Source: Thermodesulfobacteriota bacterium (GTDB lineage Bacteria; Desulfobacterota_D; UBA1144; Nemesobacterales; CSP1-2). Taken from it: a stretch of 64,000 nucleotides of DNA. The stretch spans positions 1,948 to 65,947 of the forward strand of contig DASWID010000030.1 of assembly GCA_036397855.1 (NCBI GenBank). The letters are read 5' to 3'. This document shows, one piece after another, positions 1-55,210 of the stretch (position 1 is the stretch's first letter; every line of letters starts with the position of its first letter). Position numbers and translations under genes: made by a program. The notes below the pieces were generated by a model. The model saw only the letters and a program-made list of their open reading frames with translations, was not told where the DNA came from and did not search any database.

Positions 1-738
1 CCTTATGATGCAAAGGTTTGGCAATCAACTTGGCCGGAACTAATGAAAAATGTTATTGAAGCGTGTAAAACACATCGCGTAAAGTTAGTTTTTTTCGATA
101 ATGTGTATATGTATGACCCAAACTGTGTATCGCATTTAACTGAGGAAACACGGATAAATCCTTTGAGTAAGAAGGGAATGGTTAGAGCTCAGATTGCACA
201 AATGATTTTAGATGAAGTAGAAGCAGGGAATCTGCGGGCTCTGATAGCCAGATCTGCCGATTTTTATGGTCCTGATAATGATAAAAGTGTTTTGGGGGAG
301 ACCGTATTTAAAAACTTAAAAAATGGCAAAAAAGCAAATTGGCTCTGTTCCGTGAATTACAAACATTCTTTCACATTTACACCAGATGCCGGAAAGGCAA
401 CCGCTCTATTAGGTAATTCTGCTGAAGCATACAATCAGGTATGGCATTTACCAACCGCCAAAGCTCCTCTGACAGGTAAAGAATGGATTGCAGCGTTTGC
501 TAAAGAAATGAATTTAAATCCTAAATATCGGGTCGCGGGGAAAAATATGGTCCGATTACTGGGCTTGTTCGATCCATTGATGAAAGAGTTGGTTGAGATG
601 CTTTATCAATATGATCAAGACTACTGTTTTGATAGTAGTAAATTTGAAAGTCACTATGATTTAAGGCCAACACCATATCTTGAAGGTATAAGGCAAATTG
701 TAGAAAAAGAATATGACCAAAAAGACTCCACAAAGTGA
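1..738 (+). CDS. NAD(P)-dependent epimerase/dehydratase (SDR/NmrA-like), C-terminal part; CDS runs off the 5' window edge
   Basis: The frame is open from base 1 (PYDAKVWQSTWPELMKNVIEACK...) and stops at 738. Sequence has the extended-SDR C-terminal character (…ADFYGPDN…). Confidence 0.55.
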   Translation, partial: PYDAKVWQSTWPELMKNVIEACKTHRVKLVFFDNVYMYDPNCVSHLTEETRINPLSKKGMVRAQIAQMILDEVEAGNLRALIARSADFYGPDNDKSVLGETVFKNLKNGKKANWLCSVNYKHSFTFTPDAGKATALLGNSAEAYNQVWHLPTAKAPLTGKEWIAAFAKEMNLNPKYRVAGKNMVRLLGLFDPLMKELVEMLYQYDQDYCFDSSKFESHYDLRPTPYLEGIRQIVEKEYDQKDSTK

Positions 739-1093
739 AATGCATAAAAACAGCGATTGGAGCGCGACGGGAGGCTTTTGGGCGTTTGAAGAAGTTTACG
801 ACAGATGTTACATTCTGATGAGCAAAGGGGACCGATCGGTTTTCGCTGACGAATGCTTTCCACCGTTATCTTCGTAAATGGGGAGCCAGAAATTTCTTTT
901 TAAGCAGTTCCGCATTTCGGAAAGGCTCTGCGCTCACCAGAGGCAATTTCGATTTTCTTTATTGACATGAAATTAGGCTTGTTGTACCATGGAGAATACG
1001 GCGTTTGCAGCCTAATTAGTAGTTAGCAAGCGTTGGCGATACTGCATGCGCGGCGTCAACCGCACGCGTGATATGGTTCACGAGGAGGCTTAG
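739..1093 (+). repeat. Cassette-associated element copy 0 (hairpin/T-run + promoter TTGACA-N17-TACCAT + conserved leader 'tttgcagcctaattagtagttag')
   Basis: Aligns with copies at 1700, 2440, 3340, 4018, 6790 and 7975 ('ctttccaccgtt', 'ttgacatgaaattaggcttgttgta', 'gcagcctaatt'). Confidence 0.6.
963..991 (+). promoter_or_regulatory. Sigma70-like promoter of cassette 0 (TTGACA-17 nt-TACCAT)
   Basis: -35 and -10 hexamers at the same place as in the other element copies, with a 17-nt spacer 'tgaaattaggcttgttg'. Confidence 0.5.
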
Positions 1094-1474
1094 ATGAGTA
1101 AGGCGAAGAACCGCGCTACGATTGAGGCGCTGGTGGCGGCGATCAACGGGAGAGACCACGAGGCGCTCGACAAGGTGTTCACCGAGGATGTAGCGATGGA
1201 GTGGCCTCAGTCCGGTGAGCGGATCAACGGCGGTCAAAACCGACGTGAAATCTACAGCCGCTTTCCGTCGCTCCCCAAGGTCACACCGCGGCGGATAACC
1301 GGCAGTGGCGACGTCTGGGTGCTCGAGGCAAACCTCGACTACGGCGACGGTGAGCCGTACCCGTGCGTGTTCGTCTTCGAGATGCGGGGCGGTTTGATCG
1401 CCAAGGAGGTCGCCTACTGGACGAAGCCTTTCCCGGCACCCGCGTGGCGCGCCCCGTGGGTCGAGCGCATGTAG
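1094..1474 (+). CDS. SnoaL-like / NTF2-fold small protein (ketosteroid-isomerase-like); high-GC cassette ORF
   Basis: 126 aa with RBS 'gaggagg' upstream. ~63% GC against a ~40% host. SnoaL-like features (…DKVFTEDVAMEWPQSG… EVAYW…). Confidence 0.55.
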   Translation: MSKAKNRATIEALVAAINGRDHEALDKVFTEDVAMEWPQSGERINGGQNRREIYSRFPSLPKVTPRRITGSGDVWVLEANLDYGDGEPYPCVFVFEMRGGLIAKEVAYWTKPFPAPAWRAPWVERM

Positions 1475-1699
1475 AACCCGTACCGACGCCCCCTTACTTG
1501 CTTTTAGAGTGGCTGACAGTTTTTGGAGTAGTTAAATTACCGTCCGTCCTGAGCAGGGTCGAACGGCGTAATGGTTAATAATCTATAGGAAAGGATGCAT
1601 CCCTTGACCGAGCCTGGGATGGGTGTATTCATATCCGCCGTAGAAAATAGTCTGCTTAAATACAATTGGTATAACCCCTCATCCATGCGAACTAGCACT

Positions 1700-1952
1700 T
1701 TTTGGTGCCATTGAGTAGTGCTTGCGTCCTATGGTCTCACGAACCTGATCGAGAAGTTCCTTTCTGGGTGATTTTCGATTTCCTCATCTTGACCTGAAAT
1801 CAGGTTTCTTGTATTCTGAGTACTAATTAGATTAAGCGGTGATTTGCGGTATAACATCCGCCTTCTCGATGTTATCCTGGATTTCTCGAGGCTGAATATT
1901 AGTTAGCATGACCGGCATTATCTTTATTTACTGAGATTGTAAGGAGGAGACA
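1700..1952 (+). repeat. Cassette-associated element copy A
   Basis: Conserved 'tcctcatcttgacctgaaatcaggtttcttgtattct … gatttgcggtataacatcc … cctggatttctcgaggctgaatattagttag'. Confidence 0.65.
1789..1817 (+). promoter_or_regulatory. Sigma70-like promoter TTGACC-N17-TATTCT (cassette A)
   Basis: TTGACC at 1789-1794 and TATTCT at 1812-1817 with a 17-nt spacer. Confidence 0.55.
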
Positions 1953-2432
1953 ATGAATACATCACATCGAATAATAGCAGTAATCGTGGCAGTTGGGATG
2001 GGCTTGATGGCTTGGTTCCTTGCGCAGGCGCAGGAGGGCGGGCATATTTTGCTTAACTCGGCTGATATAAAGTGGGCTGACGCGCCGCCATCGATGTCAC
2101 CGGGCGCACAGATCGCTGTGATTGAAGGGGATTTGAAAAAAGCTGAGCCCTTCGCGTTCCGCCTTAAACTCCCCGCTAATTACAAGATTCCACCACACAC
2201 CCATCCGGCTATAGAACACGTGACCGTTCTCTCCGGAACTTTCTACATGGGGGCTGGAGATCAACTCGATCAGGAGAAAGCCATAGCTTTGACACCCGGC
2301 AGTTTCGCAGCGTTTCAACCGGGGCACAGTATGTTTGCCTGGACTGAGGAAGAAACTGTAATCCAGGTGCATGGGGTTGGTCCGTGGGGGATCGATTACA
2401 TTAGCCCGGCGGACGATCCGAGAAAGAAATAA
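1953..2432 (+). CDS. Cupin-domain protein with N-terminal signal peptide or membrane anchor
   Basis: 159 aa with RBS 'aggagga'. Hydrophobic N-terminus. Cupin motifs (HTHPAIEHVTVLSGTFYMG … HGVGPWG). Confidence 0.6.
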   Translation: MNTSHRIIAVIVAVGMGLMAWFLAQAQEGGHILLNSADIKWADAPPSMSPGAQIAVIEGDLKKAEPFAFRLKLPANYKIPPHTHPAIEHVTVLSGTFYMGAGDQLDQEKAIALTPGSFAAFQPGHSMFAWTEEETVIQVHGVGPWGIDYISPADDPRKK

Positions 2433-2439
2433 CCAGAAG

Positions 2440-2681
2440 AAAAAGGGTAAGGCACCCCTTTTTCGTTGAAGATTGATGTCCACGAGTAGCTTCACCGTTG
2501 GAGAGGCAGAAGTTTCTTTTTGGGGCTGTTTTCGTTCTCCTCTTCTTGACCTGAAATTATGTCATTTATATACTGTGGGTAATCATTGGGATAAGCAATC
2601 ATTTGCAGTAAATATTACTTTTGGTAAATATAGTGCATTATTACTGATTAATTAATAGTTAGGAGCTAGAGAAACTTTTAA
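2440..2681 (+). repeat. Cassette-associated element copy B
   Basis: 'cacccctttttcgttgaagattgatgtccacgagtagcttcaccgttgga … tcctcttcttgacctgaaat'. Confidence 0.65.
2546..2574 (+). promoter_or_regulatory. Sigma70-like promoter TTGACC-N17-TATACT (cassette B)
   Basis: Same position within the element as in the other copies. Confidence 0.5.
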
Positions 2682-3182
2682 ATGGAAGGTCTAATAACAT
2701 TCGTGGTTGGAGTTGCTGTTGGCATCTTGGGGTACTCCATCACCATGAAAGTCAGTTTTAAGCAACGCACGATAGACTACAAAATACGCGTGTATGATGT
2801 CCTGATAGGCAAGTGGGTCCAAATGCGGAACCACATTTATGCTCACCACCCAGGAAACTCATCTGATAATGTCTCGTCACAGGTGATCTACCAGTTTGAT
2901 CAAATGTATGGAGAATCACAGCAGCTCATAGGTGAAGCGATACTTGTGTGCGAAGATGCTGTACTGACGAACGATATAAATGAATTAAACGAGCGAATGT
3001 ATAGAACTAAATGGCACAATCTTCCTTTGGAGCAACTGAATGAGGCTATGGAGTCGATAAAGAAGGATGCCATTTCAATTGTCTCGAGGATGAGAGAAGA
3101 CATAAAAGAAAGTACAAGATTGGAGCTGCGCGACTTCGCACATATCGCGTCTGGGTTTTGGCATAAACGGCACGATAGTTAA
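2682..3182 (+). CDS. Hypothetical protein with N-terminal transmembrane helix
   Basis: 166 aa, ORF starts directly after the element. N-terminus 'GLITFVVGVAVGILGYSI'. No recognisable domain. Confidence 0.4.
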   Translation: MEGLITFVVGVAVGILGYSITMKVSFKQRTIDYKIRVYDVLIGKWVQMRNHIYAHHPGNSSDNVSSQVIYQFDQMYGESQQLIGEAILVCEDAVLTNDINELNERMYRTKWHNLPLEQLNEAMESIKKDAISIVSRMREDIKESTRLELRDFAHIASGFWHKRHDS

Positions 3183-3339
3183 GATAAAAACGTCATTTGA
3201 AGTTCACGCCCGAGGTACCCCGAAAATGCTGGAGTTGATTGCTGACTAACTAGATGAGATAAATGTTTTGATCAAAGTAGGTAGAAAGATCGCGACAAAA
3301 TTGAACAACCCATCTACTCGACACGGTCGTCACTACTCA

Positions 3340-3522
3340 GAAGGAAGTGCCGCTTTGGGTGGTTTTTCCATCTCCTCTTCTGGAACTGAAAATAAGTTCT
3401 TTGTATTCTAAGAGCTAATTTGATTGGGCGACGATTTGCGGTATAACTTCCCTGTTTGGATATTATTCTGCATTTTTGCAGGCTAATTATTAAATGTGTC
3501 AATTGAATAAGGAGAGATTTGA
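3340..3522 (+). repeat. Cassette-associated element copy C (degenerate -35)
   Basis: 'tctcctcttctggaactgaaaataagttctttgtattctaagagctaatttgattgggcgacgatttgcggtataacttcc … ctgcatttttgcaggctaatt'. Confidence 0.6.
3381..3409 (+). promoter_or_regulatory. Promoter-like region (TGGAAC-N17-TATTCT), weak -35
   Basis: Position is homologous to the promoter of the other copies. Confidence 0.35.
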
Positions 3523-3831
3523 ATGTTAGAGCTGCGACCTACTTGTGAGCATTGCAATAAGAACTTACCACCGGTTTCTACTGAAGCAATGATTTGCAGC
3601 TATGAATGTACTTTTTGCAAAGACTGCGTTGATGAAGTTTTAGAAGATGTGTGTCCAAATTGTGGTGGCGGTTTTTGTCCAAGGCCAATAAGGCCGAGTA
3701 ATAATCTGAAAGATGATAATTACCTGGGCAAAGACCCGGCTTCCACAAAAGTTAGACATAAGCCGGTGAACATAGAAGTCCATCGTGAATTTTCCCAGAG
3801 CATTAAGAATGTGCCGCCACACGAGCGTTAA
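3523..3831 (+). CDS. DUF1272-like cysteine-rich zinc-ribbon protein
   Basis: 102 aa, 'LELRPTCEHCNKNLPP…EAMICSYECTFCKDC…CPNCGGGFCPRPIRP', matching my memory of the DUF1272 signature. RBS 'aaggagag'. Confidence 0.55.
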   Translation: MLELRPTCEHCNKNLPPVSTEAMICSYECTFCKDCVDEVLEDVCPNCGGGFCPRPIRPSNNLKDDNYLGKDPASTKVRHKPVNIEVHREFSQSIKNVPPHER

Positions 3832-4017
3832 ACACATAACAATCGGCTGCCCGCAGACTCGATTAGCTCGACGCCGTGTCGGCCACTTGCTCGGCTGTCC
3901 CGTGAATTGTCGCGACATCTCCCTGGTTCCGTCTTAGCACGAGTTCTGCAGCGAGCCGTCCGGTCTCCGCCGCCGCATTCATGAACCCGCGCGAAAAGGT
4001 CGATGGGATTGGGTGAA

Positions 4018-4345
4018 ATGAAATGCACCCCTTTTTCGTTGAAGATTACTTTGCACGAGTAACTTCACCGTTGGATGGGCAGATAATTTCCTAAATTGGT
4101 GAATTTCTATTTCCTCTCCTTGACCTGAAATTAGGCTTGTTGTATCCTGACTACTAGTACATTTAAGCAATGATTTGCAGTATAACATCCTTTTTGCATG
4201 TTGTGCTTGGTCTTTGCTTGCTAATTATAATTAGGATTCTAGGATCTTCTACATGGCAATCATCGCATGCCTGGGGTGGGGTTCTCTTGTATGAGATCCC
4301 CAAGGGCTCCCGGTTCATCGTCAGTGGTTTGCTGATGGCCCGTTT
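4018..4345 (+). repeat. Cassette-associated element copy D
   Basis: 'cacccctttttcgttgaagattactttgcacgagtaacttcaccgttgga … ttgacctgaaattaggcttgttgtatcct … gatttgcagtataacatcc'. Confidence 0.65.
4120..4148 (+). promoter_or_regulatory. Sigma70-like promoter TTGACC-N17-TATCCT (cassette D)
   Basis: 17-nt spacer 'tgaaattaggcttgttg', identical to the copy-0 spacer. Confidence 0.5.
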
Positions 4346-4819
4346 GTGAAGGTGGAATTTGTGCGCCAGTCAGACGACGGCCGAATTACGCTGGTTCTGG
4401 ACGATGTTGCTTCACCGGTGCGCTCGCTTTGGGCAGTGATGGATGATTCCGATCTGGGAGCCGCTCGAGAAGCACTTCGCAAGCGTGAACGAATTCCCGG
4501 TAACAACTCGACGCATATCGGGTCATGGTCTCAGGGAGATAACGCCCCTGAGTTGATTCTTGATCTTCCCGAATGGGTGGCATCACGTGGAGTGCGGTCG
4601 GTCATATGGTCTGCTTTACCGTCAAAATTTGAAGGTAAGAACGGACAAACCCCAACGTGTGAGCAAGTGCTTCGATATCTCAGCGGGCTGACTGGAGCAC
4701 TCCGTGATGCAGCCGAGCGCTACGTTAGCTTGGCGCCTCGCCAAATTGACACGCTGTACCGGCGTCGAATAGAAGCAGTACTTCAATGGACACCGCAGGG
4801 TCCAAACTTTGGGTCATGA
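4346..4819 (+). CDS. Hypothetical protein (GC-rich cassette ORF)
   Basis: 157 aa, ~57% GC, no recognisable family. The start may be GTG. Confidence 0.4.
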   Translation: MKVEFVRQSDDGRITLVLDDVASPVRSLWAVMDDSDLGAAREALRKRERIPGNNSTHIGSWSQGDNAPELILDLPEWVASRGVRSVIWSALPSKFEGKNGQTPTCEQVLRYLSGLTGALRDAAERYVSLAPRQIDTLYRRRIEAVLQWTPQGPNFGS

Positions 4820-5105
4820 TGCGGTTGTGGCTCTATTAATTAGTTAACGCATCGGTTAAGTTACTCGTTAGATCACGTAGATCGGTATGAAGTTTACGAT
4901 AAGGTCTTTAATGGTGGATTTTTGGTTTACAATCAATCCCACCATTTTACAAAGCCTAATATTTCAAGGGTTCATCCTAATTTTCTTCCTTGAGTTTGAA
5001 TCCATCGGTAAAATGAATTAACAGGTTTTTAAGCTTATTAATATCAAGCGATATAGATCACTTAAACGGAAACTGGTAAAGCACTGTATAGGAGATGTTG
5101 GATCC

Positions 5106-6728
5106 TTACTCGAACTTTAAACCCCAGAAGTCCTTGAACCTTTCATCAAGAAAACGGTTTCTTAATTTGCTGCCCTTAATTTTTTGAACGACAGATAAGA
5201 ATCCTTCGCTTGAATTGTTCTTTAGGGTGGAGAAAACATCCTCTAATTCAATCTTATCGATCATCTCATCAAACAGTTCCAATTCTTCAATATTTATAAG
5301 AAGTATATGAAAATCTTTCAAACCGTTAAGATGTTTATCTCTCTCTACATTTTCAAGCGCGTCTTTTATCCATGATTCATACAACGAACTAGATACGAAT
5401 GGCATGTCCATAAAAACTATACAGGGAAATACCTTTTTGTTTTTGAATTGGCTAAACTCATTATAATATTTCGGAATATCTTCTACCCTTTTGAAAATCT
5501 GCTCTATCGCATCTACAATTTTTTTGATCTCTCCTTTCACTATAAGTTCTTTATCGCCGGTCTGTCTACTTAGTAAAGCAAACTGGTTAGCCTTTGCCTC
5601 AAATAGATAGATTTTGTCTCCTCTTTCGACCCACCAGTCAACAAATTTACCTTTAGGATAATCTAACTCTGGGTGAACATTCTGCTCTCCATAGATTCCC
5701 TTTAAGATAACCCCTACATATTCTTGAAAGACATACCCGAAATAGTTTCTAAATTCTTGTTGTTGAGCTTTATCTTCAAAATAGCGATGAAATAACCAAT
5801 AAATCCCCCCAAAAGCTTTTCTAACATACGCAGACGCATTTGGCACAACAAACGGATCACCACGATGCTTTGCATCGGTTTCTATAATTGGATAAACCAA
5901 TAACGGATTAAACCTCGTCTTTGTAAAAATTGGATTCAGGTTTGCATTAAAGCGGACATCTTCGCTTTTGAAACTTTTGTAATCCGCTTTTAATATATTG
6001 AGGAAGTTATTAATTTTTTCTTCGATCAGGACATCCTTTAATTGAGGTATGTCGGCCTTAGTGAACATTGGGATGCTGAAAGTCGCTGTTCTCTTGGAGC
6101 CAGCAGCCACTGCCGTAGCGATTAGGAGATAATCGTTTATTCTTAAGCTTGTTTCCATTTCGAAAATAAGGGATAAATTTTCGAATTTCCCAGGAAGTAT
6201 TTTTTTGACCAAGTCATTAAAGATAACAAACGTTCTTGCCATCATATAAATGGGTAAGAATTGGTATTCCATTTGCTCGAAGTGAAGTCGTATCATCAAA
6301 GATCGGACCTTATCTTCGTTAGTGATTTCATAGGTTTCGGTATGCTCTGGTTGTGTGAGTGAGTTATTATAGATATTGCATAAAGCAAGCCAATTATCTT
6401 TTTCGTGTATATATTTTGATTTGTGATCATTGGCTCCAGAAATAAGCAAAAGATTCGCCAAGTAGGCCAAGGCAAATTGGCTTATTATTATCCCCGTGTT
6501 TTGTTCTCTATGAGCAGCGATGCCAATGTTATTTGGGTCCCCGCTATTGAATATGTAAATAGAAGCTTTGCCCAGAGTAATGATTCCGCCTCGCAGATTA
6601 TATCTCCTTAAAACAGTCTTCAGTTCTTCTTCAGACACTGAGCCCTCCGGTCTATTACCAAGTTCAGCAATATCGCTATCACAAGGTATTGTTATTATTT
6701 CTGGGATCATAGTGTGATTTTTCATCAA
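5106..6728 (-). CDS. Large hypothetical protein (540 aa) with a possible C-terminal PD-(D/E)xK-like nuclease motif; opposite orientation inside the cassette array
   Basis: Long AT-rich ORF (~36% GC). Segment '…FVDWWVERGDKIYLFEAKANQF…' has a D…E-A-K arrangement compatible with a restriction-endonuclease-like fold. No other recognisable domains. Confidence 0.5.
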   Translation of the reverse strand: MMKNHTMIPEIITIPCDSDIAELGNRPEGSVSEEELKTVLRRYNLRGGIITLGKASIYIFNSGDPNNIGIAAHREQNTGIIISQFALAYLANLLLISGANDHKSKYIHEKDNWLALCNIYNNSLTQPEHTETYEITNEDKVRSLMIRLHFEQMEYQFLPIYMMARTFVIFNDLVKKILPGKFENLSLIFEMETSLRINDYLLIATAVAAGSKRTATFSIPMFTKADIPQLKDVLIEEKINNFLNILKADYKSFKSEDVRFNANLNPIFTKTRFNPLLVYPIIETDAKHRGDPFVVPNASAYVRKAFGGIYWLFHRYFEDKAQQQEFRNYFGYVFQEYVGVILKGIYGEQNVHPELDYPKGKFVDWWVERGDKIYLFEAKANQFALLSRQTGDKELIVKGEIKKIVDAIEQIFKRVEDIPKYYNEFSQFKNKKVFPCIVFMDMPFVSSSLYESWIKDALENVERDKHLNGLKDFHILLINIEELELFDEMIDKIELEDVFSTLKNNSSEGFLSVVQKIKGSKLRNRFLDERFKDFWGLKFE

Positions 6729-6789
6729 ACCGTATTTCTAAGTTATTTTTTGTGAGTCTTTCTATATTTTACTCAATATATAAAGAAAG

Positions 6790-6952
6790 ACGGAAAAAGA
6801 ACGCATCACTTTTTCGTCGAAGAATGCCTTCACTGGTAGCTTCGCCATTCGAGAGGCAGAAGTGTCTTTGGTGTGTTTTCCATTTCTTCTTCTTGACCTG
6901 AAAATAGGTTTTCAGTATTCTAGGTGCAGTATTAGATGCGAGGATTATCCTG
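6790..6952 (+). repeat. Cassette-associated element copy E (short leader)
   Basis: 'catcactttttcgtcgaagaatgccttcactggtagcttcgccattcgagagg … ttcttcttgacctgaaaataggttttcagtattct'. Confidence 0.65.
6892..6920 (+). promoter_or_regulatory. Sigma70-like promoter TTGACC-N17-TATTCT (cassette E)
   Basis: Exact hexamers with a 17-nt spacer. Confidence 0.55.
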
Positions 6953-7891
6953 ATGCTAAAAGGAGCTTCAGAAAACGAAACATGGCCGAGTCTCCCTTTA
7001 GATGAGTGGAAAGAGACGTGTGCCACGCTGCACATGTGGTTCCAGATGGTCGGGAAGATTCGGCTGGCCCAGAGTCCTTGGGTTAACCATTCTTGGAACG
7101 TCACCCTCTACGTGACCGCCCGTGGCCTCACTACTTCCCCCATTCCCTATGGAACGAGGACCTTTCAGATTGATTTCGATTTTACTGATCACAAGCTATT
7201 AATTCAGTCCAGCGACGGTAGAGCTGGCTCCATTCTCCTTCGACCCTGCTCCGTCGCGGCGTTTTATAGGAAGCTCATGGAAGAGCTGAATAAGCTCGAT
7301 TTGCATCTCAAGATCAACACGAAACCAAACGAAATGCCGGACCCGATTCCCTTCGACCAGGATGAGGTGCATGCTTCGTATGATCCCGACTACGCCAACC
7401 GCTTTTGGCAGGTGCTCTTACAGTCCGATCGGGTCTTCAAACAGTTTCGAGGCCATTTCATCGGCAAGTGCAGCCCCGTCCATTTCTTCTGGGGTGCCCT
7501 CGATCTTGCTGTAACGCGGTTCTCCGGACGACCGGCACCAGAGCATCCCGGGGGAATACCCCATCTTCCCGACGCCGTAACCCGAGAGGCGTATTCACAT
7601 GAGGTCAGCAGTTGCGGATTCTGGCCAGGGGGTGGCGCGATATCATATCCTGCCTTCTACTCATACGCTTACCCGGAGCCTCACGGCTTCGCCGAAGCCG
7701 CTGTCAAACCCGGCATCGCTTTCTACAGCAGTGACTTTCGTGAATTTCTGCTTCCGTATGATGCAGTTAGAACATCCGAGTCACCCGACGACACGCTTCT
7801 TGAGTTTCTGCAGACTACGTATGACGCCGCGGCCAATTTGGGAGGCTGGGATCGTAAATCCCTGGAGCGTAGCGATACCTTGCAAGGCTAG
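6953..7891 (+). CDS. Hypothetical protein (312 aa, GC-rich cassette ORF; possibly DUF5996-like)
   Basis: ~57% GC. 'WPSLPLDEWKETCATLHMWFQMVGKIRLAQSPWVNHSWNVTLYVTARG'. The family assignment is from memory only. Confidence 0.45.
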   Translation: MLKGASENETWPSLPLDEWKETCATLHMWFQMVGKIRLAQSPWVNHSWNVTLYVTARGLTTSPIPYGTRTFQIDFDFTDHKLLIQSSDGRAGSILLRPCSVAAFYRKLMEELNKLDLHLKINTKPNEMPDPIPFDQDEVHASYDPDYANRFWQVLLQSDRVFKQFRGHFIGKCSPVHFFWGALDLAVTRFSGRPAPEHPGGIPHLPDAVTREAYSHEVSSCGFWPGGGAISYPAFYSYAYPEPHGFAEAAVKPGIAFYSSDFREFLLPYDAVRTSESPDDTLLEFLQTTYDAAANLGGWDRKSLERSDTLQG

Positions 7892-7974
7892 ACCTAATCT
7901 AAGGCGCTAAAATACATTTAGGGTTAAGCATTTAGTTCCTATTTATCGCATCGACGCTATCAGGAAAGGAGGTG

Positions 7975-8233
7975 CACTCCCTTTTTCGTTGAAGATTACT
8001 TCCCACGAGTAGCTTCGCGGACAGCACAATAAGTTTCCTTTTTGGGAGTCACAGTGGCTTAATACAGGTGGTTTTCCATTTCCTCTTCTTGACCTGAAAT
8101 CAGGATTTTTGTATTCTAGTTTTTAGTCAGATTAGGCAATGATTTGCAGAATAGCATCTCGTTTTGGTTATTATCCTGCATTTTTGCTGTCTAATTCGTA
8201 GTTATAGGGATTGAGAAGAAATGCAGGGATGAC
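7975..8233 (+). repeat. Cassette-associated element copy F
   Basis: 'cactccctttttcgttgaagattacttcccacgagtagcttcgcgg … ttgacctgaaatcaggatttttgtattct … gatttgcagaatagcatct … cctgcatttttgctgtctaatt'. Confidence 0.65.
8089..8117 (+). promoter_or_regulatory. Sigma70-like promoter TTGACC-N17-TATTCT (cassette F)
   Basis: Exact hexamers with a 17-nt spacer. Confidence 0.55.
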
Positions 8234-8824
8234 ATGAGTGTAACAGAATATTTGCTTATCGATTTTGAAAATGTTCGGCCTGATGGAATCCCTGCGATTC
8301 ATGAAAATCAAAACGTGTTTATTTTCGCGGGAGATAACCAGAATAAAATTGATTATGACCTGGTTAGAGCGACCCAGCCCTACGGAAATCGGGTTCAATG
8401 GATCAAAATTAAGGGAAGTGGGAGAAATGCCCTTGATTTTCATATTTCCTTTTATCTTGGGAAGTTATCTGCTATTCATAAGCAAGCATCGTTTTTCATA
8501 TTATCCAAAGATAAAGGTTTTGATCCGCTCATGAGGTATTTGGAAAAATCCGGAATACAATGTAAGAGAATAACTCAATTACAGGATTTTATAACAGGCA
8601 AGAAGGAGGTGGATGATGACAGTATATTTGCAAAGATACTTAGGATGCTGCTTAAGATTGATCTGACAAGAAGGCCAAAAAGAATTCGAACATTGAAGGC
8701 ATTTATCGGATCAAGGAATAAAATGGATAGTGTTAAAGTCGATAAAATTATAAAAAGATTGGCCGACGAGGAAATAATCATTTTGAATGAAGAAAAAGTG
8801 TCTTATCCGGCCGGACAAAAATGA
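8234..8824 (+). CDS. NYN/PIN-like (LabA-like) domain protein
   Basis: 196 aa. Motifs 'YLLIDFENVRP', 'SGRNALDFHI' and 'ILSKDKGFDPL' resemble NYN catalytic-core positions. Confidence 0.5.
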   Translation: MSVTEYLLIDFENVRPDGIPAIHENQNVFIFAGDNQNKIDYDLVRATQPYGNRVQWIKIKGSGRNALDFHISFYLGKLSAIHKQASFFILSKDKGFDPLMRYLEKSGIQCKRITQLQDFITGKKEVDDDSIFAKILRMLLKIDLTRRPKRIRTLKAFIGSRNKMDSVKVDKIIKRLADEEIIILNEEKVSYPAGQK

Positions 8825-8928
8825 AACCGTATAACAACCGAATCGAACTGGCAAAATTTTGCTCGTCACGTTGCTTGCTTACGCAAACGCCGCGCCGACC
8901 AGCTCGAAAAGTAAAGGTGTGAGGCCTT
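8821..8928 (+). CDS. Possible 35-aa Cys-containing peptide translationally coupled (ATGA) to the NYN-like gene
   Basis: ATG overlaps the stop of 8234-8824. Peptide MKPYNNRIELAKFCSSRCLLTQTPRRPARKVKV. Not in the ORF track because it is under 60 aa. Coordinates approximate. Confidence 0.2.
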
Positions 8929-8984
8929 GGCATGAGATTTAATTCCTTCGATAAGCTTACATAACTTCTTATCTCTTTTCGTCT

Positions 8985-9062
8985 CCTATTCTAGTCTGAA
9001 AAATAGAAAAGGGGCCACAAGCCTTTTTCGATTAAGAATGCGTTCCACGGGTAGCTTAGCCG
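8985..9062 (+). repeat. Degenerate remnant of the cassette-associated element (copy G); the promoter part is eroded
   Basis: 'ggggccacaagcctttttcgattaagaatgcgttccacgggtagcttagccgcttgagag' aligns with the 5' part of the element. Upstream, 'tctcctattctagtctgaaaaatag' is a decayed promoter part. Confidence 0.45.
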
Positions 9063-9340
9063 CTTGAGAAAAAAAGGTCGGGCTTTGTTTATTTGATTAT
9101 TTGTTAATCCAGCTCATTTGTAATATCTTTTATCTCTTTTTGCAGTCCATCATCTAACAACAGTTTCTGAGAAAATACGGACAGATACTCAATATTCCTA
9201 ATCCGCACTTCGACGAAGCTCAGTGTGAACGGTTTTTATATAAAAAAAGAAAAAGAAAATAGTGACAGCTGCCCCTTTTTCTTAACCAATGTTAGATATG
9301 AAGTGTGTTTTTTAAATTGTGATATATACTAATATATACT

Positions 9341-9805
9341 GTGTTCATTTATCGGGTGATTGAAGCACTTGAGAAAAGAAAAGTAGATTACGCTATTGCT
9401 GGTGGATATGCAGTAGCGCTCCATGGAGCAGTAAGAGGAACTGTTGATATTGACATTGTTTTACGATTTACGAAAAAGAATCTTCTTGCGGCAGAGGCTG
9501 CTCTTAGGGACGTAGGGTTGCAGTCACGTCTTCCGGTAAAAGGAGATGAGGTTTTTGATTTTCGGGAGGAATACATAAAAAATAGAAACCTTTTGGCATG
9601 GAATTTTATTAATATTTCTAATCCGACTGAATCTGTTGATATCATACTCACCGATGATTTGAGAAATTTGAAAACAAAAATAATACGCTCAGGTGAAAAG
9701 ACACTACGGGTAATTTCAATCGATGACCTAATTAAGATGAAAGCGAAGAGTAATAGAGGACAAGACTTAGAGGATATTAAAGCCTTAAGGAGTTTGAAGA
9801 AATGA
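9341..9805 (+). CDS. Minimal Pol-beta-superfamily nucleotidyltransferase (MNT-like)
   Basis: 154 aa, GTG start. 'IAGGYAVALHGAVRGTVDIDIVL' is the hG[GS]x9-13Dh[DE]h NTase motif. Confidence 0.6.
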   Translation: MFIYRVIEALEKRKVDYAIAGGYAVALHGAVRGTVDIDIVLRFTKKNLLAAEAALRDVGLQSRLPVKGDEVFDFREEYIKNRNLLAWNFINISNPTESVDIILTDDLRNLKTKIIRSGEKTLRVISIDDLIKMKAKSNRGQDLEDIKALRSLKK

Positions 9806-10047
9806 AATCAGTACAATTTTTTTCAAAAGAATATTTGGAAAGGTGTGCTTCAATGAAACCAGAACAGATCCTTCAATTTCTGGAAGATTTTAGAACCCTT
9901 CATTCTGAATCAAAAACACAAAAAACCCGTCTTATCAGCATCAAGATCCCCGAAGATTTACTTAATGCTTTCAAAGCCAAAGCAAAAGTTAATGGGATTC
10001 CATATCAAACCCAGATCAAAAGGCTGATGGCGGAATGGATGAGATAG
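9802..10047 (+). CDS. BrnA-like ribbon-helix-helix (CopG-family) antitoxin-type protein
   Basis: 81 aa, overlaps the upstream NTase gene by 4 nt. C-terminus 'RLISIKIPEDLLNAFKAKAKVNGIPYQTQIKRLMAEWM' matches the BrnA/RHH pattern (…RLD.D.L.WFKA…GYQTRIN..LR.Y…). Confidence 0.6.
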   Translation: MKSVQFFSKEYLERCASMKPEQILQFLEDFRTLHSESKTQKTRLISIKIPEDLLNAFKAKAKVNGIPYQTQIKRLMAEWMR

Positions 10048-10120
10048 TCATATAAGTTTCATTGTCAGCATTCATGAAAATAACAATGTCACAAACCAGT
10101 TATATGGTAATATTCAACTG

Positions 10121-10498
10121 ATGAACCAGGTAGTATTTCACATGATCGGCAATTTTTTCGATTCCGAATCAAGAAACCTGCCAACAGCAAAGATCAAAAA
10201 TCTTTCAGAATTAAAAAGATCTCTGCGCATAACTCGCCAATACAATGTTGTTTTATTAGATGACAACGATCACACCTATGAATATGTAATCGAAATGTTG
10301 GTAGAAATTTTTGGGCATAGCAAGGCCCGAGCTTTTGAGATGGCCTGCACAGTAGATCTAATGGGAAGGGTCGTGGTTTTTACATCGACAAAAAAGTCTG
10401 CAGAGGAGAAACGAATTCAAATCCTCTCTTATGGTCCTGATTGGAGGCTTTCCAGGAGTAATGGATCGATGAAAGCAATAATCGAACCCGCAGAATAA
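10121..10498 (+). CDS. clpS: ATP-dependent Clp protease adaptor ClpS
   Basis: 125 aa. 'YNVVLLDDNDHTYEYVIEMLVEIFGHSKARAFEMACTVDLMGRVVVFTSTKKSAEEKRIQIL' matches the ClpS core. Confidence 0.75.
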   Translation: MNQVVFHMIGNFFDSESRNLPTAKIKNLSELKRSLRITRQYNVVLLDDNDHTYEYVIEMLVEIFGHSKARAFEMACTVDLMGRVVVFTSTKKSAEEKRIQILSYGPDWRLSRSNGSMKAIIEPAE

Positions 10499-10519
10499 CA
10501 TATTTGAAAATACCAACCG

Positions 10520-10860
10520 ATACTTATGATTTTTTATCCGCACTTCGACTGGGCCCTTCGACTCAGGACAGGCTCAGTGTGAACGGGTTTTTTGTGCTGA
10601 TGGGAGCCTAAAGGCTTGCTCTACATGGTAATGATACTTTGCGTAGCGGAGGGCTTTAGGCCTCCATTCTTTACAAGTGATGCAGCGTGTGAATTTATCA
10701 GACCCAATAGCCCTTATGTTGTATCCATTGGAATATAAAGAATTCCGCTACAGGAATTCATTGTGTCACGAGCAACACTCGTGACCTACCCGATGGGGAA
10801 TAAATAACAAAATAATCGGGTTTTTTTCTACAGGAAACGAAAACTTAGATAGGACTGGCT
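10520..10860. repeat. Cluster of REP/BIME-like dispersed palindromic repeats in a convergent intergenic region
   Basis: Contains 'ccgcacttcgactgggcccttcgactcaggacaggctcagtgtgaacgg', 'gcctaaaggcttgc…gcggagggctttaggcctcc' and 'gtcacgagcaacactcgtgacctaccc'. All recur elsewhere (9196, 13800-13925, 14155, 15700-15960, 30990, 55085-55205). Confidence 0.6.
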
Positions 10861-10867
10861 ATTTCTT

Positions 10868-11821
10868 TTAGATAAGGTTCCCTTTTATTACTCTAAGGAA
10901 ATTGCCCCCCATGATTTTTCTTACCCTTTCTTCTGAGTAGCCTTTTTCTACGAAAAAGTATGCAATCTTTGATAGGTCGGCAACTGTGCGTATTTCGTTT
11001 GGGAACTGATCAATCCTTCCTCCGTCCAGATCGCTTCCAATTCCGACATGGGCTTCACCACAGAGATTTATCATGTAATCTGCATGAGTAAAAACATCTT
11101 CAAGTGTAGGTTTTTTATTCCCTGTCTTGAGAAAATCGTTATAAAGGACGAGACCGATCACACCGCCTCTTTTCGCGATTGCACGAAGTTGATCATCCTT
11201 CAGGTTCCTTGAATGATCTGTTATGGCTCTCGCATTTGAATGAGTGGCAATGGGAATTGTCTCGTAAATCTCTAATGCTTCCCAAAAACAACTTTCGTTG
11301 AGATGAGATAAATCGAGTGTAATCCTCAAATCGTTCATTCGTTTAATCAATTCCTTACCTTCATTGGTTAATCCCGAATCCGTATTTGTTCCTGATGCAT
11401 ATTGATTCTGGTCATTCCAGGTAAGACCTATGATGCGAACCCCTTTGTCATAGAATTCATTTAATTTTTCAGGCTCCTTGATTGGGTCTGCACCTTCCAT
11501 AAGCGTGAGAAAGCCAATTTTAGAGTTATACTCCAGTCTTAAAAGATCCTCAGCACTTTTAATCTGCATTATGCTATCTGAATGTTCATCGTATAATTTT
11601 TCATAGATTTCAAACTGTCTTATGGCTACTTTCCTTGTTTTGTTCGGTTTAATTTTGGGATGAACAAATATTGTGTTAAATAGAAGTCTTATATTCCCCT
11701 GTTTCAACCACGGTAGGGTAATCATGCAGGGGACGGAGGGATTTACGAAATCTCTCTTAAAGAAACTTAGGTGAAATGCTATATCTTCATGTGCATCTAC
11801 AATGAAAAGACTATCTAACAT
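10868..11821 (-). CDS. Membrane dipeptidase (peptidase M19 family)
   Basis: 317 aa. 'VDAHEDIAF…', 'GLTWNDQNQYASG', 'DLSHLNE', 'ATHSNARAI'. Confidence 0.7.
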   Translation of the reverse strand: MLDSLFIVDAHEDIAFHLSFFKRDFVNPSVPCMITLPWLKQGNIRLLFNTIFVHPKIKPNKTRKVAIRQFEIYEKLYDEHSDSIMQIKSAEDLLRLEYNSKIGFLTLMEGADPIKEPEKLNEFYDKGVRIIGLTWNDQNQYASGTNTDSGLTNEGKELIKRMNDLRITLDLSHLNESCFWEALEIYETIPIATHSNARAITDHSRNLKDDQLRAIAKRGGVIGLVLYNDFLKTGNKKPTLEDVFTHADYMINLCGEAHVGIGSDLDGGRIDQFPNEIRTVADLSKIAYFFVEKGYSEERVRKIMGGNFLRVIKGNLI

Positions 11822-35302: not shown

Positions 35303-35854
35303 ATGAATAAGGAAGGAAAGAGCCTCTCCTCCCTGAAGGCTTTTTTCGGAAAACTTGTAAGAATTAGTTTCTTCGATCTCGGAATTGAAAATGAAGCAAA
35401 CATCGCTTCATATTTAACCGATTTACTTTCAGATTTTGCGAGAACAGAGAGGCTGTATAAATTTAGGGATTCTGAGGGAAGAAAAATTCAAACTGTAGTG
35501 GAGATGCTAATTAAAGATCAAAGTGAATCACAGGAAAGACCTGAATGGGAAAGGGAAATCAGAAAACACATTGGAGATTTTACCCTTTTTATATCAGGCA
35601 TCTTCAGAGATTATGTGACTAATGGCTCCTATCTTAACTATTACATGAATGAGGGTGCCAAATCCTATCATTTTGTCTCAAGATTTGACCTTGAGAAGGG
35701 TCGAGGCAATCCGATTGTATTCAGCAAACTTTCAAGGAATTTTGAATTTTACTCTGGTGCCCTAGACTACATGCGGAGGGTATACTTTAAGTCGGGAAAA
35801 ACGAGCGATCCATTCTCGACCTTCGCAACTCAAATTTCTAATATCAAGCATTAA
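35303..35854 (+). CDS. Hypothetical protein
   Basis: 183 aa. RBS 'aaggaggg'. No recognisable domain. Confidence 0.4.
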   Translation: MNKEGKSLSSLKAFFGKLVRISFFDLGIENEANIASYLTDLLSDFARTERLYKFRDSEGRKIQTVVEMLIKDQSESQERPEWEREIRKHIGDFTLFISGIFRDYVTNGSYLNYYMNEGAKSYHFVSRFDLEKGRGNPIVFSKLSRNFEFYSGALDYMRRVYFKSGKTSDPFSTFATQISNIKH

Positions 35855-37440: not shown

Positions 37441-37515
37441 GGGCGGTTAACTCAGTGGAAGAGTGCCATCCTCACACGGTGGAAGTCACTGGTTCAAATC
37501 CAGTACCGCCCACCA
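37441..37515 (+). tRNA. tRNA-Val (anticodon CAC), CCA-encoded
   Basis: Cloverleaf: acceptor gggcggt/accgccc, D-arm actc-agtggaa-gagt, anticodon arm ccatc-ctCACac-ggtgg, T-arm actgg-ttcaaat-ccagt, then A-CCA. Coordinates ±1. Confidence 0.8.
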
Positions 37516-37525
37516 TATTTCAATC

Positions 37526-39175
37526 CTACTCGACGGCTGTAGCATCTACTACAGTTACTTCTACCACTTGGGGGATTTCGCTCAACATACCTATTTCAAC
37601 GTTCTTGAATTCTCGTTCACTATGAGGCGGCAAGGCTTCATACAGTGTGATTTTGTGCGAACCCATTGGCGTTTTACCTTGATATAGGTAGAAGGCAACT
37701 TCAAGTTGAATACTTGAGTAAGTTATTCCGCTAATGTTTTCTAGAGTTAGTGTACTGAGTTTCCCCATAGTTTGTGGAACTCCGCCTCCACCCAACTTGA
37801 AATCTTTTACAACAATATCCCTTTCAGGTATGGGAACGAATTCCTCTTCTTCATCATTTTGACCTTCTGAACTTTTACCAACCTTAGCCGCTTTGGTTGC
37901 TTCTTTTTCCGAGGTCGTCTGTGAACCAGAGGAACTATCTTGATCATCCCCTGAGGATGATTTGGGACTGGTTTGAAAAGAGTATTCGGTCCCGAGGGGC
38001 GTTCTTGTGATTCCGCTGTACGTAGGCGAGATAAATTCTTCGTTTGATTCGCTAAGGATTCTCTGCTTATACCTATCAACCAGTGAGATTTGCGGAGCAT
38101 CTTCTATTACAGGTTTATCGAGAACCTCTTTTCTGTAGCGCTCGGCAAGCGATAATTTTTGTCCTTCATCGACCTTGGTTGAATCAGGTACCTGAGATAT
38201 CTGAGTTTCTTCTTCAGAGATTTCTTCTGAGGGTTCGGTCAGCCCACGTTCCTCCCTGTATCTTTCGGCAAGGGATTTCTTTCTTGTTCTTGTCTCAGTT
38301 TCATCACCCTCAATATCTATGGACTCCCCCTTCTTAGCGAGCCTGTATTTTGCTTCTTTTACTGAAATCTTATCGGCGTCAATCACCGTTATTAGTACTT
38401 CTTTTGCATCAGGGTGTCTGAATCCAACATTTATACCCTTGTAAGTTCTAGTGTTCTTTGCAGGCAGAATGTCGTGGATCACCGCTCTACTCGTATATCC
38501 CTTAGTACCAGTTTCCGGGCCGGGCACCCCTAGATACTGCACCTCTATTCCGATGTTTGAATAGTTGTTTTTGCTGGTATTATCTAATGTTATATCCTTC
38601 AATATTCCTTCGGTGCCATACCGGCCCCCCGACCACTGCCAATTCTTAACAACTATTACGTCCTTTGGCTGTCCTGGGGTTCCCTTTTCTAACATCTCTG
38701 CCCCTACTACATTTACTATGGTTTTTTGAAGCTCCGAATGCATTATTCCAAAGTTGATATTTTTAAATGTTTTCGTCGTTCCGCTCTGAAGAACATCATT
38801 TATCGTAGATCGCAGGGAGCCAAGAGGGATGTCGTTTTGGGTGTAAAAGTTTGCCTCTATCTCAATGTTTTCGTAATCATTATTACCTATGTTTTCCAAT
38901 GTTATTTCATCGATTATGCCGGGTCGTCCCATACCTCCTGAGTTCCACTTATAATCCTTAACCTGTATAACCCTCTTGGGGGATTCCTGATCTTTTGATT
39001 TAGCAAATCCGATCTGATAGCAAGGAGTGGAAAGGAGTATTGTAAGGAACAGTGTGGATACGAGACCGTAGGTAAGTCCAATAGATTTTGCTTTAAATTT
39101 AATTATTGAATAGAAGAAATTCATAAAGTCTCCACCGATACGCCAAGTATTAAAGTTAGAGTATACATAAATCAT
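37526..39175 (-). CDS. Exported/membrane-anchored protein with three ~80-aa internal repeats and three 'SLAERYR' motifs
   Basis: 549 aa. N-terminal TM segment. Repeats '…ITLENIGNNDYENIEIEANFY…FKNINFGIMH', '…ITLDNTSKNNYSNIGIEVQYL…YKGINVGFRH' and '…LTLENISGITYSSIQLEVAFY…FKNVEIGMLS'. An acidic linker carries 'SLAERYREE', 'SLAERYRKE' and 'SLVDRYKQR'. Confidence 0.6.
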   Translation of the reverse strand: MIYVYSNFNTWRIGGDFMNFFYSIIKFKAKSIGLTYGLVSTLFLTILLSTPCYQIGFAKSKDQESPKRVIQVKDYKWNSGGMGRPGIIDEITLENIGNNDYENIEIEANFYTQNDIPLGSLRSTINDVLQSGTTKTFKNINFGIMHSELQKTIVNVVGAEMLEKGTPGQPKDVIVVKNWQWSGGRYGTEGILKDITLDNTSKNNYSNIGIEVQYLGVPGPETGTKGYTSRAVIHDILPAKNTRTYKGINVGFRHPDAKEVLITVIDADKISVKEAKYRLAKKGESIDIEGDETETRTRKKSLAERYREERGLTEPSEEISEEETQISQVPDSTKVDEGQKLSLAERYRKEVLDKPVIEDAPQISLVDRYKQRILSESNEEFISPTYSGITRTPLGTEYSFQTSPKSSSGDDQDSSSGSQTTSEKEATKAAKVGKSSEGQNDEEEEFVPIPERDIVVKDFKLGGGGVPQTMGKLSTLTLENISGITYSSIQLEVAFYLYQGKTPMGSHKITLYEALPPHSEREFKNVEIGMLSEIPQVVEVTVVDATAVE

Positions 39176-55059: not shown

Positions 55060-55210
55060 CAGCCGACTGATAATATTTTCTGCGAGTAATAATGTTTATG
55101 ATGCTTCGACAGGCTCAGCATGAATGGTTTTGTTCGAATACCGTTCGCACTGAGCCTCGGCTGAGCAGTGAGCATGTCGAACTGTCGAAGTGCTTGGTCG
55201 AAGGGCATTA
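55060..55210. repeat. REP/BIME-like palindromic repeat cluster downstream of glgB
   Basis: 'gcttcgacaggctcagcatgaatgg … ccgttcgcactgagcctcggctgagcagtgagcatgtcgaactgtcgaagtgcttggtcgaagggc'. Same family as at 10535 and 15775-15940. Confidence 0.6.

Follow-up and report, generated by a model that had tools for sequence, protein, structure and literature searches.

The window analysed here is a 64,000-nt stretch of contig DASWID010000030.1 (assembly GCA_036397855.1, positions 1,948 to 65,947). It comes from the chromosome of an uncultured Candidatus Dadabacteria organism of soil or groundwater, Dadabacteria being a class within the Thermodesulfobacteriota. Near its start, beside a ribosomal RNA (rRNA) operon, eight unrelated genes stand in a row, and seven of the eight lie behind a copy of one module of ~230–270 bp, which is composed of a hairpin, a 5′ block, a predicted promoter and a leader. 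The window matches metagenome contigs, and its core genes are ~80–86% identical to those of a Ca. Dadabacteria metagenome-assembled genome (MAG), L008 (CAWDVW010000002.1; L numbers denote the loci used for comparison). The remainder of the window is housekeeping in character, with dapB, tgt, yajC-secDF, cstA, pheS, gyrB, mutL, efp and glycogen/trehalose enzymes.

A direct-repeat search and a MAFFT alignment placed the composite element at positions 822–9075, as seven same-strand copies (A to G) and one remnant (H); with nhmmer, they bore out the number and placement of copies proposed in an earlier note on this DNA. The nhmmer profile, built from 20 element copies, matched A (822–991), B (1687–1911), C (2441–2665), D (3278–3499), E (4013–4237), F (6793–6927) and G (7964–8210), all on the plus strand. 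Between 9.1 and 64 kb of the window, neither the profile nor two consensus patterns detected another copy, and the patterns gave four and three matches against 0.00 expected, all inside the array. Because three assemblies from three different sources and samples (L001, L002 and L016) agree on the order of the array, and because paralogous module copies within the genome are only 50–69% identical, an assembly artefact is excluded. Each element precedes a different open reading frame (ORF) with its own ribosome-binding site. Pfam searches confirmed that these ORFs are unrelated, as had been supposed: they encode SnoaL_2, cupin/DUF4437, DUF1272, DUF5996 and PIN7 proteins, besides unknowns. The swings in GC content described earlier were likewise recovered, from 33% (5001–5500) to 62% (1001–1500) against a background of ~40%; gene by gene, the range is 35 to 63%.

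The units follow one another on the plus strand. Element A (822–1026) has the hairpin, the 5′ block, the promoter TTGACA(962)-17-TACCAT and an internally deleted leader ending CTAATTAGTAGTTAG (1012–1026); orthologous A-type promoters are present in L008, L028 and L029. Its cargo, a SnoaL_2/NTF2-like gene of 62% GC identified by Pfam (1094–1474), brings its own upstream region and ribosome-binding site (1027–1093). Element B (1687–1906) combines a diverged 5′ block that lacks the hairpin with the promoter TTGACC(1789)-17-TATTCT and a full leader ending TTAGTTAG at 1906, and it precedes a Pfam-assigned cupin/DUF4437 gene of ~53% GC (1953–2432). The hairpin of element C (2440–2662) starts 8 nt past the stop codon of that gene; this copy consists of hairpin and T-run (2440–2464), 5′ block, promoter TTGACC(2546)-17-TATACT and a leader ending at 2662, and its cargo encodes a 166-aa protein of unknown family (2682–3182, ~39% GC, no Pfam or PADLOC match). 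In element D (3278–3496), the 5′ block and the −35 box (TGGAAC at 3381) are degenerate, the −10 box is TATTCT and the leader is full; the orthologous D-type element of L034/L035 has an intact TTGACC and 5′ block. The DUF1272 gene that follows (3523–3831, Pfam) is trailed by ~180 nt of GC-rich sequence (3832–4010), which is absent from the orthologous unit in L034–L036.

Element E (4013–4234) carries the hairpin, the 5′ block, the promoter TTGACC(4120)-17-TATCCT and a leader ending CTAATTATAATTAG; ~110 nt of cargo-specific 5′ sequence accompany its gene (4346–4819), which encodes a protein of 152–157 aa and unknown family at ~55% GC. Between unit E and element F lies the one gene with no element in front, a minus-strand ORF of 534–540 aa (5106–6728, 35% GC, family unknown). 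Element F (6793–6952) has the hairpin, the 5′ block, the promoter TTGACC(6893)-17-TATTCT and a short, internally deleted leader that reaches the ATG of a DUF5996 gene (6953–7891, 53% GC, Pfam E = 8e-146). Element G (7964–8205), with hairpin, 5′ block, promoter TTGACC(8089)-17-TATTCT and a full leader ending at 8205, precedes a Pfam-assigned PIN7-domain gene of 38% GC (8234–8824). The remnant H (8995–9075), found by the direct-repeat search, is promoter-less and retains only hairpin and 5′ block; L008, L026 and L028 have a complete H element with its promoter before an alpha/beta-hydrolase gene, and this gene is missing in the window.

Conservation along the module is uneven. The hairpin, flanked by an A-run and a T-run (−8 to −14 kcal/mol), had been reported for every copy; only A, C, E, F, G and H have it, whereas B and D do not. 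The 5′ block spans ~95 nt, takes the form CGTTGAAGAATGCTTTCCACGGGTAGCTTCGCC...GAAGTTTCTTTTTGGG and has a mean identity of 56%. The promoter has the form GTTTTCCATTTCCTCTTC-TTGACC-TGAAATYAGGTTTTTTG-TATTCT. Its 30-nt core, spacer included, reaches a mean identity of 93% across 20 copies, in keeping with the near-invariant σ70-like promoter first described, with variants at 962, 2546 and 3381 (the last degenerate) and in the −10 box of E (TATCCT). A TTGAC(C/A)-17-TAnnnT match, the predicted promoter, stands at a fixed distance from the leader in six of the seven units. The spacer is as conserved as the two hexamers and holds an ACCTGA-AA-TCAGGT palindrome. The leader (~90 nt, 71–83% identity) ends sharply at ...CTAATTAnTAGTTAG; directly past this end (TAGTTAG) identity drops to 35%, and stop codons can be read there in all three frames. 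In several units the next module begins 0–8 nt past the stop codon of the cargo gene. No terminal inverted repeats joining the module ends were found, no dif/Xer-like site was seen in the module by inspection, and a short reverse-strand ORF in the 5′ block was discarded because its reading frame is not conserved between copies.

Folded singly, all six leaders form one rod-like hairpin at minimum free energy (z-scores −0.7 to −5.6), and a covariance model built on this rod recovers 23 sense-strand leaders. In the rod structure, 78% of cells are paired, compared with 32–46% when the partners are slid, and pairs changed on both sides number 15, compared with 10.9 in shuffled alignments (21 of 500 shuffles reach 15). 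G·U pairs (104) outnumber A·C mismatches (41), which favors folding of the sense strand. Rfam 15 gave no match at the gathering score, and none in the modules even at E ≤ 5. A rod-like leader fold is plausible as a structural model, and it could plausibly act in RNase III processing or as a protective or standardizing 5′ stem. The leader, with at least 23 examples, is a candidate for a new cis-acting RNA element.

Extension of the locus upstream with L016, a contig of the window's genome, gives the order 16S-tRNA-tRNA-23S, a 199-aa ORF, the epimerase gene and the array. Searches for rRNA place the array downstream of a 23S gene, with no 5S gene behind the 16S-tRNA-tRNA-23S operon, in L016 (operon at 6092–11283), L015, L008 and L010. 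The array of L028 is probably likewise situated, as judged from a gene-free gap in which rRNA was not searched for. Neither the 64-kb window nor the related loci yielded a 5S gene in rRNA and Rfam searches; the gene may be unlinked, as in split rRNA operons. The window itself begins within the NmrA/epimerase-like gene, whose 3′ part occupies 43–738 (+; Pfam Epimerase; the full gene, of 318 aa, is in L016). The earlier note took this gene for a housekeeping-type flank. L008 and L028 lack it at the orthologous site, their array regions coming directly after 23S rRNA and small ORFs, so that the gene counts as an accessory member of the variable region and not as a conserved flank.

The distal boundary is conserved. 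It is formed by overlapping genes for a DUF6036 nucleotidyltransferase-like protein and a BrnA/CopG-like antitoxin (9341–10047, +), followed by clpS (10121–10498, +; PF02617), the first conserved core gene past the array, with orthologues in L008, L026 and L028. The order DUF6036/BrnA-like pair, clpS, M19 dipeptidase and hydantoinase B is common to the window, L008, L019, L026 and L028; the pair holds the same position in L019, L013, L026 and L028 and is truncated in L008. Toxin–antitoxin cassettes stabilize Vibrio superintegrons, and by analogy this toxin–antitoxin-like pair may perhaps stabilize the array. Most arrays are situated between a 16S-23S rRNA operon and clpS.

Pattern scans and protein-anchored look-ups identified ~40 further copies of the element in ~20 metagenome or MAG loci of Ca. 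Dadabacteria/Thermodesulfobacteriota (L007, L008, L010–L013, L015, L017, L019–L021, L023, L024, L026, L028–L031 and L034–L036). There, too, the copies are always in tandem and co-oriented with their cargo, which includes alpha/beta hydrolase, glyoxalase, GYD, RibD_C, DUF1428, PIN_12, PD-(D/E)XK nuclease, AbiTii, methyltransferase and DUF899 genes, several unknowns and, by eye, YCII-like and ECF-sigma-like genes in L007. Eight other loci (L005, L006, L009, L014, L018, L022, L025 and L027) were set aside, as the pattern scans found in them at most a promoter-like fragment of 23–61 nt; four of these gave weak profile matches (E 3e-4 to 3e-3). In a scan of GTDB species-representative genomes, the Dadabacteria MAG matched at one locus only (L008), and two scans of viral contigs in IMG/VR gave no match. 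Because the MAG has a single locus and viral contigs have none, whereas a dispersed repeat-like motif of this genome (described below) occurs elsewhere, we regard the element as specific to arrays and not as a dispersed miniature inverted-repeat transposable element (MITE). The scattered MITE family that the earlier note offered as its counter-explanation therefore does not account for the copies, which occur only in arrays both in the window and in the scanned MAG.

Comparison among relatives reveals how these arrays change. Instead of the same genes in the same order, which would have spoken against gene cassettes, relatives show extensive presence/absence variation with breakpoints in the element. 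L028 has SnoaL, DUF5996, PIN7 and hydrolase genes before DUF6036/BrnA/clpS and is without the 540-aa gene and window units B to E. In L008, an A-type promoter stands before a SnoaL stub, of which only the initial 34 nt are left; next come a hybrid element, B-like in its 5′ half and G-like in its 3′ half, then PIN7, and last the complete H element with the hydrolase gene. The first unit of L015 is a cupin gene with a B-type leader, and L035 holds three very compact units (111 aa, GYD and DUF1272). Blocks shared with the window begin 5–17 nt upstream of the −35 box (at 1772, 3366, 6888 and 8072), and the shared PIN7 block ends within the next 5′ block at 9055, with 8072–9055 being 91% identical to L008. 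From where these blocks begin and end, the exchanged unit consists of promoter, leader, cargo and the next 5′ block. It is at the modules that arrays are broken and rejoined, and units pass from one lineage to another.

Leader and downstream cargo stay together across genomes in four cases. The B leader accompanies cupin in both the window and L015, the G leader accompanies PIN7 in the window as in L008, the F leader stands before DUF5996 in the window and, in the same short form, in L011, and the D leader goes with DUF1272 in the window and L034. The 5′ block goes with the upstream gene and the long leader hairpin with the downstream gene. Some changes lie outside the module: SnoaL is deleted beyond its first 34 nt in L008, the DUF1272 block shared with L034 ends at 3861, and unrelated DNA at 9058–9277 replaces the hydrolase unit. 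These are illegitimate events, insertions or deletions beside cargo ORFs.

Divergence estimates bear on the age of the units. Synonymous divergence (dS) is 0.17–0.22 for PIN7 (compared with L008 and L028) and 0.38 for DUF5996 (compared with L028), versus 0.52–0.96 for the core flanks clpS, dipeptidase and brnA when the same genomes are paired. The PIN7 unit reaches 91% identity in its non-coding parts as well, versus ~81–85% for the flanks. Orthologous units, as defined by cargo across lineages, are ~90% identical over the whole shared units and 69–74% over the module profile region. Because cargo units are less diverged than their flanks, some have been exchanged after the lineages split, which points to recent lateral exchange. 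The ratio of nonsynonymous to synonymous substitution (ω) for cargo is 0.06–0.28, reflecting purifying selection and indicating that the cargo genes are functional; individual values are 0.056 for SnoaL, 0.155 for cupin (against the L015 orthologue, 94% identity) and 0.07–0.12 for DUF5996.

The cargo also has relatives far outside the class. SnoaL homologues of 76–99% amino acid identity occur in many phyla and DUF1272 homologues of 70–91% across phyla, their hosts including Gemmatimonadota, Methylomirabilota, Terriglobia, Binatia, Polyangiaceae and Gammaproteobacteria MAGs. The SnoaL ORF, over exactly its own length, has 82% DNA identity to a Gemmatimonadales contig of 70% GC. GC content, cross-phylum homologues and this match support a partly foreign origin of the cargo. 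The Gemmatimonadales locus (L032) was considered as the donor and rejected, as it shares the ORF only and contains no integron array. Because of this, and because the closest DUF1272 relatives are further Dadabacteria arrays, the ends of the fragments as first captured are not definable.

We consider it probable, at roughly 0.6, that the array is a hypervariable accessory-gene locus beside the rRNA operon in which the shared module acts both as a maker of transcription units and as portable homology. Such a locus would be built of expression units, in each of which the module stands before a single unrelated gene that brings its own ribosome-binding site and is often foreign in composition. 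The A/T-flanked hairpin would probably terminate the previous unit. From the module, every acquired gene would receive a transcription start of its own, probably co-regulated with the others, and a structured 5′ end of standard form. Because the modules are repeated in direct orientation, they would offer portable homology for the deletion of units, for hybrid joining and for exchange between lineages; judged by the comparison of arrays, units have evidently been so exchanged. We infer RecA-type homologous recombination as the agent. Crossovers in the promoter core are expected under this mechanism because the core is the only stretch, of ~30 nt, that is nearly identical between paralogues. 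The array also changes by illegitimate insertions and deletions beside cargo ORFs.

Several points weigh against this interpretation. Promoter, terminator and leader functions are predicted from sequence, and generic promoter and terminator scans were not enriched over shuffles, so that the argument for the promoter rests on conservation and position and not on scan counts. Covariation in the leader is weak (14–21 of 500 shuffles reach the observed values), and RNAalifold alone, applied to 18 leaders, returned only a 4-bp hairpin. One array (L029) lies behind greA instead of an rRNA operon. A site-specific recombinase would account for the crossovers in the promoter core just as well. Homologous recombination explains neither why 12 or more unrelated cargos are joined to the module within ~2 nt of one point nor why the next module starts so close behind the stop codon in several units; such precision hints at a specific mechanism. 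The data likewise do not explain how a foreign gene initially became fused to the module at its sharp end (...TAGTTAG|). The analysis covered contigs and MAGs; the rest of the genome may hold further copies or distant recombinase genes.

Among its options, the earlier note had named a classical integron cassette array, either a cluster of attC sites lacking an integron-integrase (CALIN) or a sedentary chromosomal integron with its intI outside the window. Integrons are the textbook bacterial stockpile of single-gene cassettes, and a row of co-oriented, small, compact and unrelated genes separated by a repeated hairpin-containing sequence does resemble one; a GTTAGGC-like motif at some leader ends even fits GTTRRRY. 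An attC site, however, forms the 3′ end of a cassette and belongs to the upstream gene, with an R″ RYYYAAC/R′ GTTRRRY pair, a bottom-strand fold and crossover at G|TT. A regex-plus-fold search of both strands of 700–9400 returned four core pairs, compared with 2.1 ± 2.3 in shuffles, and none in the module, in agreement with the failure to find canonical RYYYAAC...GTTRRRY pairs by eye; the sole paired candidate (9152–9297, ATCTAAC...GTTAGAT, 146 nt apart) folds no better than shuffles (z = −0.94). The repeat hairpin is linked to the downstream gene, the opposite of attC–cassette linkage, and breakpoints fall in the promoter region and not at a GTT in the hairpin base. The G·U excess favors a top-strand or RNA fold. 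Integron cassettes mostly lack promoters and depend on a common promoter, Pc, whereas each unit here has its own predicted promoter. No intI was found within 12 kb upstream or 55 kb downstream. Core pairs at chance level, the missing integrase, downstream linkage, the sense-strand fold and a promoter per unit lead us to conclude that the array is not an integron, and we give that explanation very little credence.

A dedicated capture system, in line with the new cassette-capture system that was the third option of the earlier note, would be integron-like in behavior but unrelated; a recombinase encoded elsewhere, acting on the promoter core or the hairpin-proximal module end, would excise and insert promoter-bearing units and place new DNA at ...TAGTTAG|. 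In one form of this idea the module is an expression socket: foreign DNA would be inserted just 3′ of promoter and leader, and units would be moved by a recombinase recognizing the promoter core, a scheme that we hold only tentatively. The 3′ module boundary common to at least 12 unrelated cargos, the compact units, the palindromic spacer conserved like the hexamers, the mapping of all crossovers to the promoter core and a cargo like that of chromosomal integrons (small enzymes, PIN, toxin–antitoxin-like and Abi genes) would all fit. Against it, no recombinase lies between −12 kb and +55 kb or consistently in the 20 other loci, the sole one being an IS256 element in L020; the window ORFs scanned with Pfam contain no recombinase or transposase domain, as the earlier note had observed, and no integrase was recognized when the ORFs in the 10 kb upstream (L016) were read by eye. 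The junctions vary, too: F, H, A and L023_937 have leaders cut short at different points, the hybrid in L028 changes over downstream of its promoter and the right-hand end of the DUF1272 unit lies outside the module. The 50–69% identity among paralogous modules gives no sign of recent activity. We judge a dedicated system unlikely, and it is junction precision and the invariant spacer that keep it under consideration. A third possibility is that the module itself is mobile though non-autonomous, as a mobile promoter of the MITE, palindrome-associated transposable element (PATE) or Correia kind would be, and was inserted repeatedly into a pre-existing island. Both module ends are fairly sharp, a hairpin lies at each end, the orientation is single and promoter-carrying repeats are known (putative mobile promoters, PMC3488235; Correia elements, PMC2649163); in L029, moreover, SnoaL follows glyoxalase with no module between them. 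The module lacks terminal inverted repeats, and target-site duplications were not seen by eye, with no systematic search made for them. Neither the scanned MAG nor the other 55 kb of the window has a copy outside arrays, and the copies are orthologous by cargo across lineages and old within the genome, arguing against recent transposition. An island of single genes from different sources, with an insertion between each, is itself implausible unless module and cargo travel together. The lack of terminal repeats and of dispersed copies and the orthology by cargo thus disfavor a mobile element, which we think improbable. Phage origin was rejected as well, the two viral contig scans having given no match and the neighbors being housekeeping genes.

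Set beside known systems, the array shares with integrons and CALINs its co-oriented, compact, unrelated and often foreign genes, its variation between strains, the toxin–antitoxin-like pair at its end and similar cargo, whereas it differs in the attC pairs and intI that it lacks, in having a promoter per unit instead of a common Pc, in the downstream linkage of its repeat and in its breakpoints in the promoter region. Morons of lambdoid phages, which Hendrix and colleagues reportedly described, are promoter-gene-terminator units with a base composition unlike that of their neighbors; they do not share one promoter sequence and are not in tandem. The array resembles them in unit layout and deviating base composition and differs in having no phage context and an element without an IMG/VR match. 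Putative mobile promoters are dispersed upstream matches of 50–100 nt, recognized as upstream regions of at least 50 nt with at least 80% identity before non-homologous downstream genes (Matus-Garcia, Nijveen and van Passel 2012, PMC3488235). By this definition the module qualifies, since profile positions 91–150 have a mean identity of 83–93% in 20 copies before unrelated genes. As in those cases, ~60 nt are conserved (within ~250 nt of homology) before non-homologous genes, which the module plausibly wires into host transcription; unlike them, the array copies are confined to one hypervariable locus, where they stand in tandem, include a terminator-like hairpin as well as a long structured leader, and mark units that are gained and lost.

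The hypervariable region HVR2 of SAR11 is flanked by 23S and 5S rRNA genes acting as sites of homologous recombination, and strains resemble one another more closely there than over the genome on average, a pattern interpreted as evidence of its spread by homologous recombination (PMC2217521). The array is alike in having hypervariable gene content right beside an rRNA operon and exchanged parts that are less diverged than their flanks. In SAR11, however, the rRNA genes supply the homology and a multigene lipopolysaccharide/cell-surface cluster forms the cargo, whereas the array has an internal promoter module that splits the region into single-gene units, and no 5S gene was found on its far side. 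Correia elements of Neisseria are intergenic repeats with a promoter and a hairpin that is possibly an RNase III substrate (PMC2649163). The module likewise supplies promoter and hairpin; it has neither the terminal inverted repeats nor the genome-wide dispersal of Correia elements. Our literature search returned no description of a single-locus tandem array with one terminator-promoter-leader module before every accessory gene.

In this little-known, uncultured class, the array reaches an integron-like outcome by a different layout, with a shared promoter and structured 5′ leader, no attC site or integrase, and turnover at the module. Should the reading as a homology-driven accessory locus be correct, the array would be a clear natural example of one module being a standard expression part for foreign genes and, at the same time, the homology that makes them exchangeable, and the case would bear on how horizontally acquired genes become expressed. 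If instead the sharp junctions reflect a dedicated mechanism, the array would represent a new class of gene-capture system in which cassettes arrive ready for expression.

Some further features of the array and its relatives deserve record. The 540-aa minus-strand ORF was examined as a recombinase candidate and rejected: it has no Pfam or PADLOC match and is unrelated to the 524-aa ORF of L024. A possible D...EAK nuclease-like motif lies near residue 370 (by eye), and at the analogous position L034 has a reverse-strand Fapy-DNA-glycosylase gene. Directly behind the stop codon of cargo 5, CTATTAATTAGTTAA (4833–4847) is similar to the motif at the leader end and may be left over from a lost unit, at the point where the region of the reverse-strand gene starts. 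In L029 (GCA_016187835.1, 7400–9620), the glyoxalase gene that precedes SnoaL stands behind an A-type promoter, and in later units the promoters are more diverged (TTGACT.../TTGACC...TAGCAT) and the leaders shortened. The IS256-family (Transposase_mut) gene of L020 lies directly upstream of one array, at 5855–7105 in array orientation, and is the only transposase gene seen near any array.

Beyond the array, tRNA-Val(CAC) at 37441–37515 adjoins a 549-aa ORF (37526–39175, −) that has no Pfam or PADLOC match, as does a nearby 183-aa ORF (35303–35854). SnoaL-like and DUF1272 proteins have hundreds to thousands of homologues of 70–99% amino acid identity in unrelated phyla, which suggests that small stress or detoxification genes form a widely shared pool. 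The SnoaL gene of L032 belongs to an extended series of small genes (cupin, glyoxalase, DUF1801 and SnoaL) without attC sites. The dispersed motif mentioned above is a repeat resembling repetitive extragenic palindromic (REP) sequences, of the form ...CCGCACTTCGAC-RNN-CTCAG-NNN-GAAYGG..., and occurs in the window at 9171–9230, 10506–10586 and 55105–55127. This REP-like repeat (TTCGAC..GCTCAG...GAAYGG) is found at unit junctions in L011, L017, L019, L023, L024 and L008, where it is often inserted between a 5′ block and the following promoter, and also outside the array. Two 44-nt copies bracket the DUF6036-BrnA-clpS segment.

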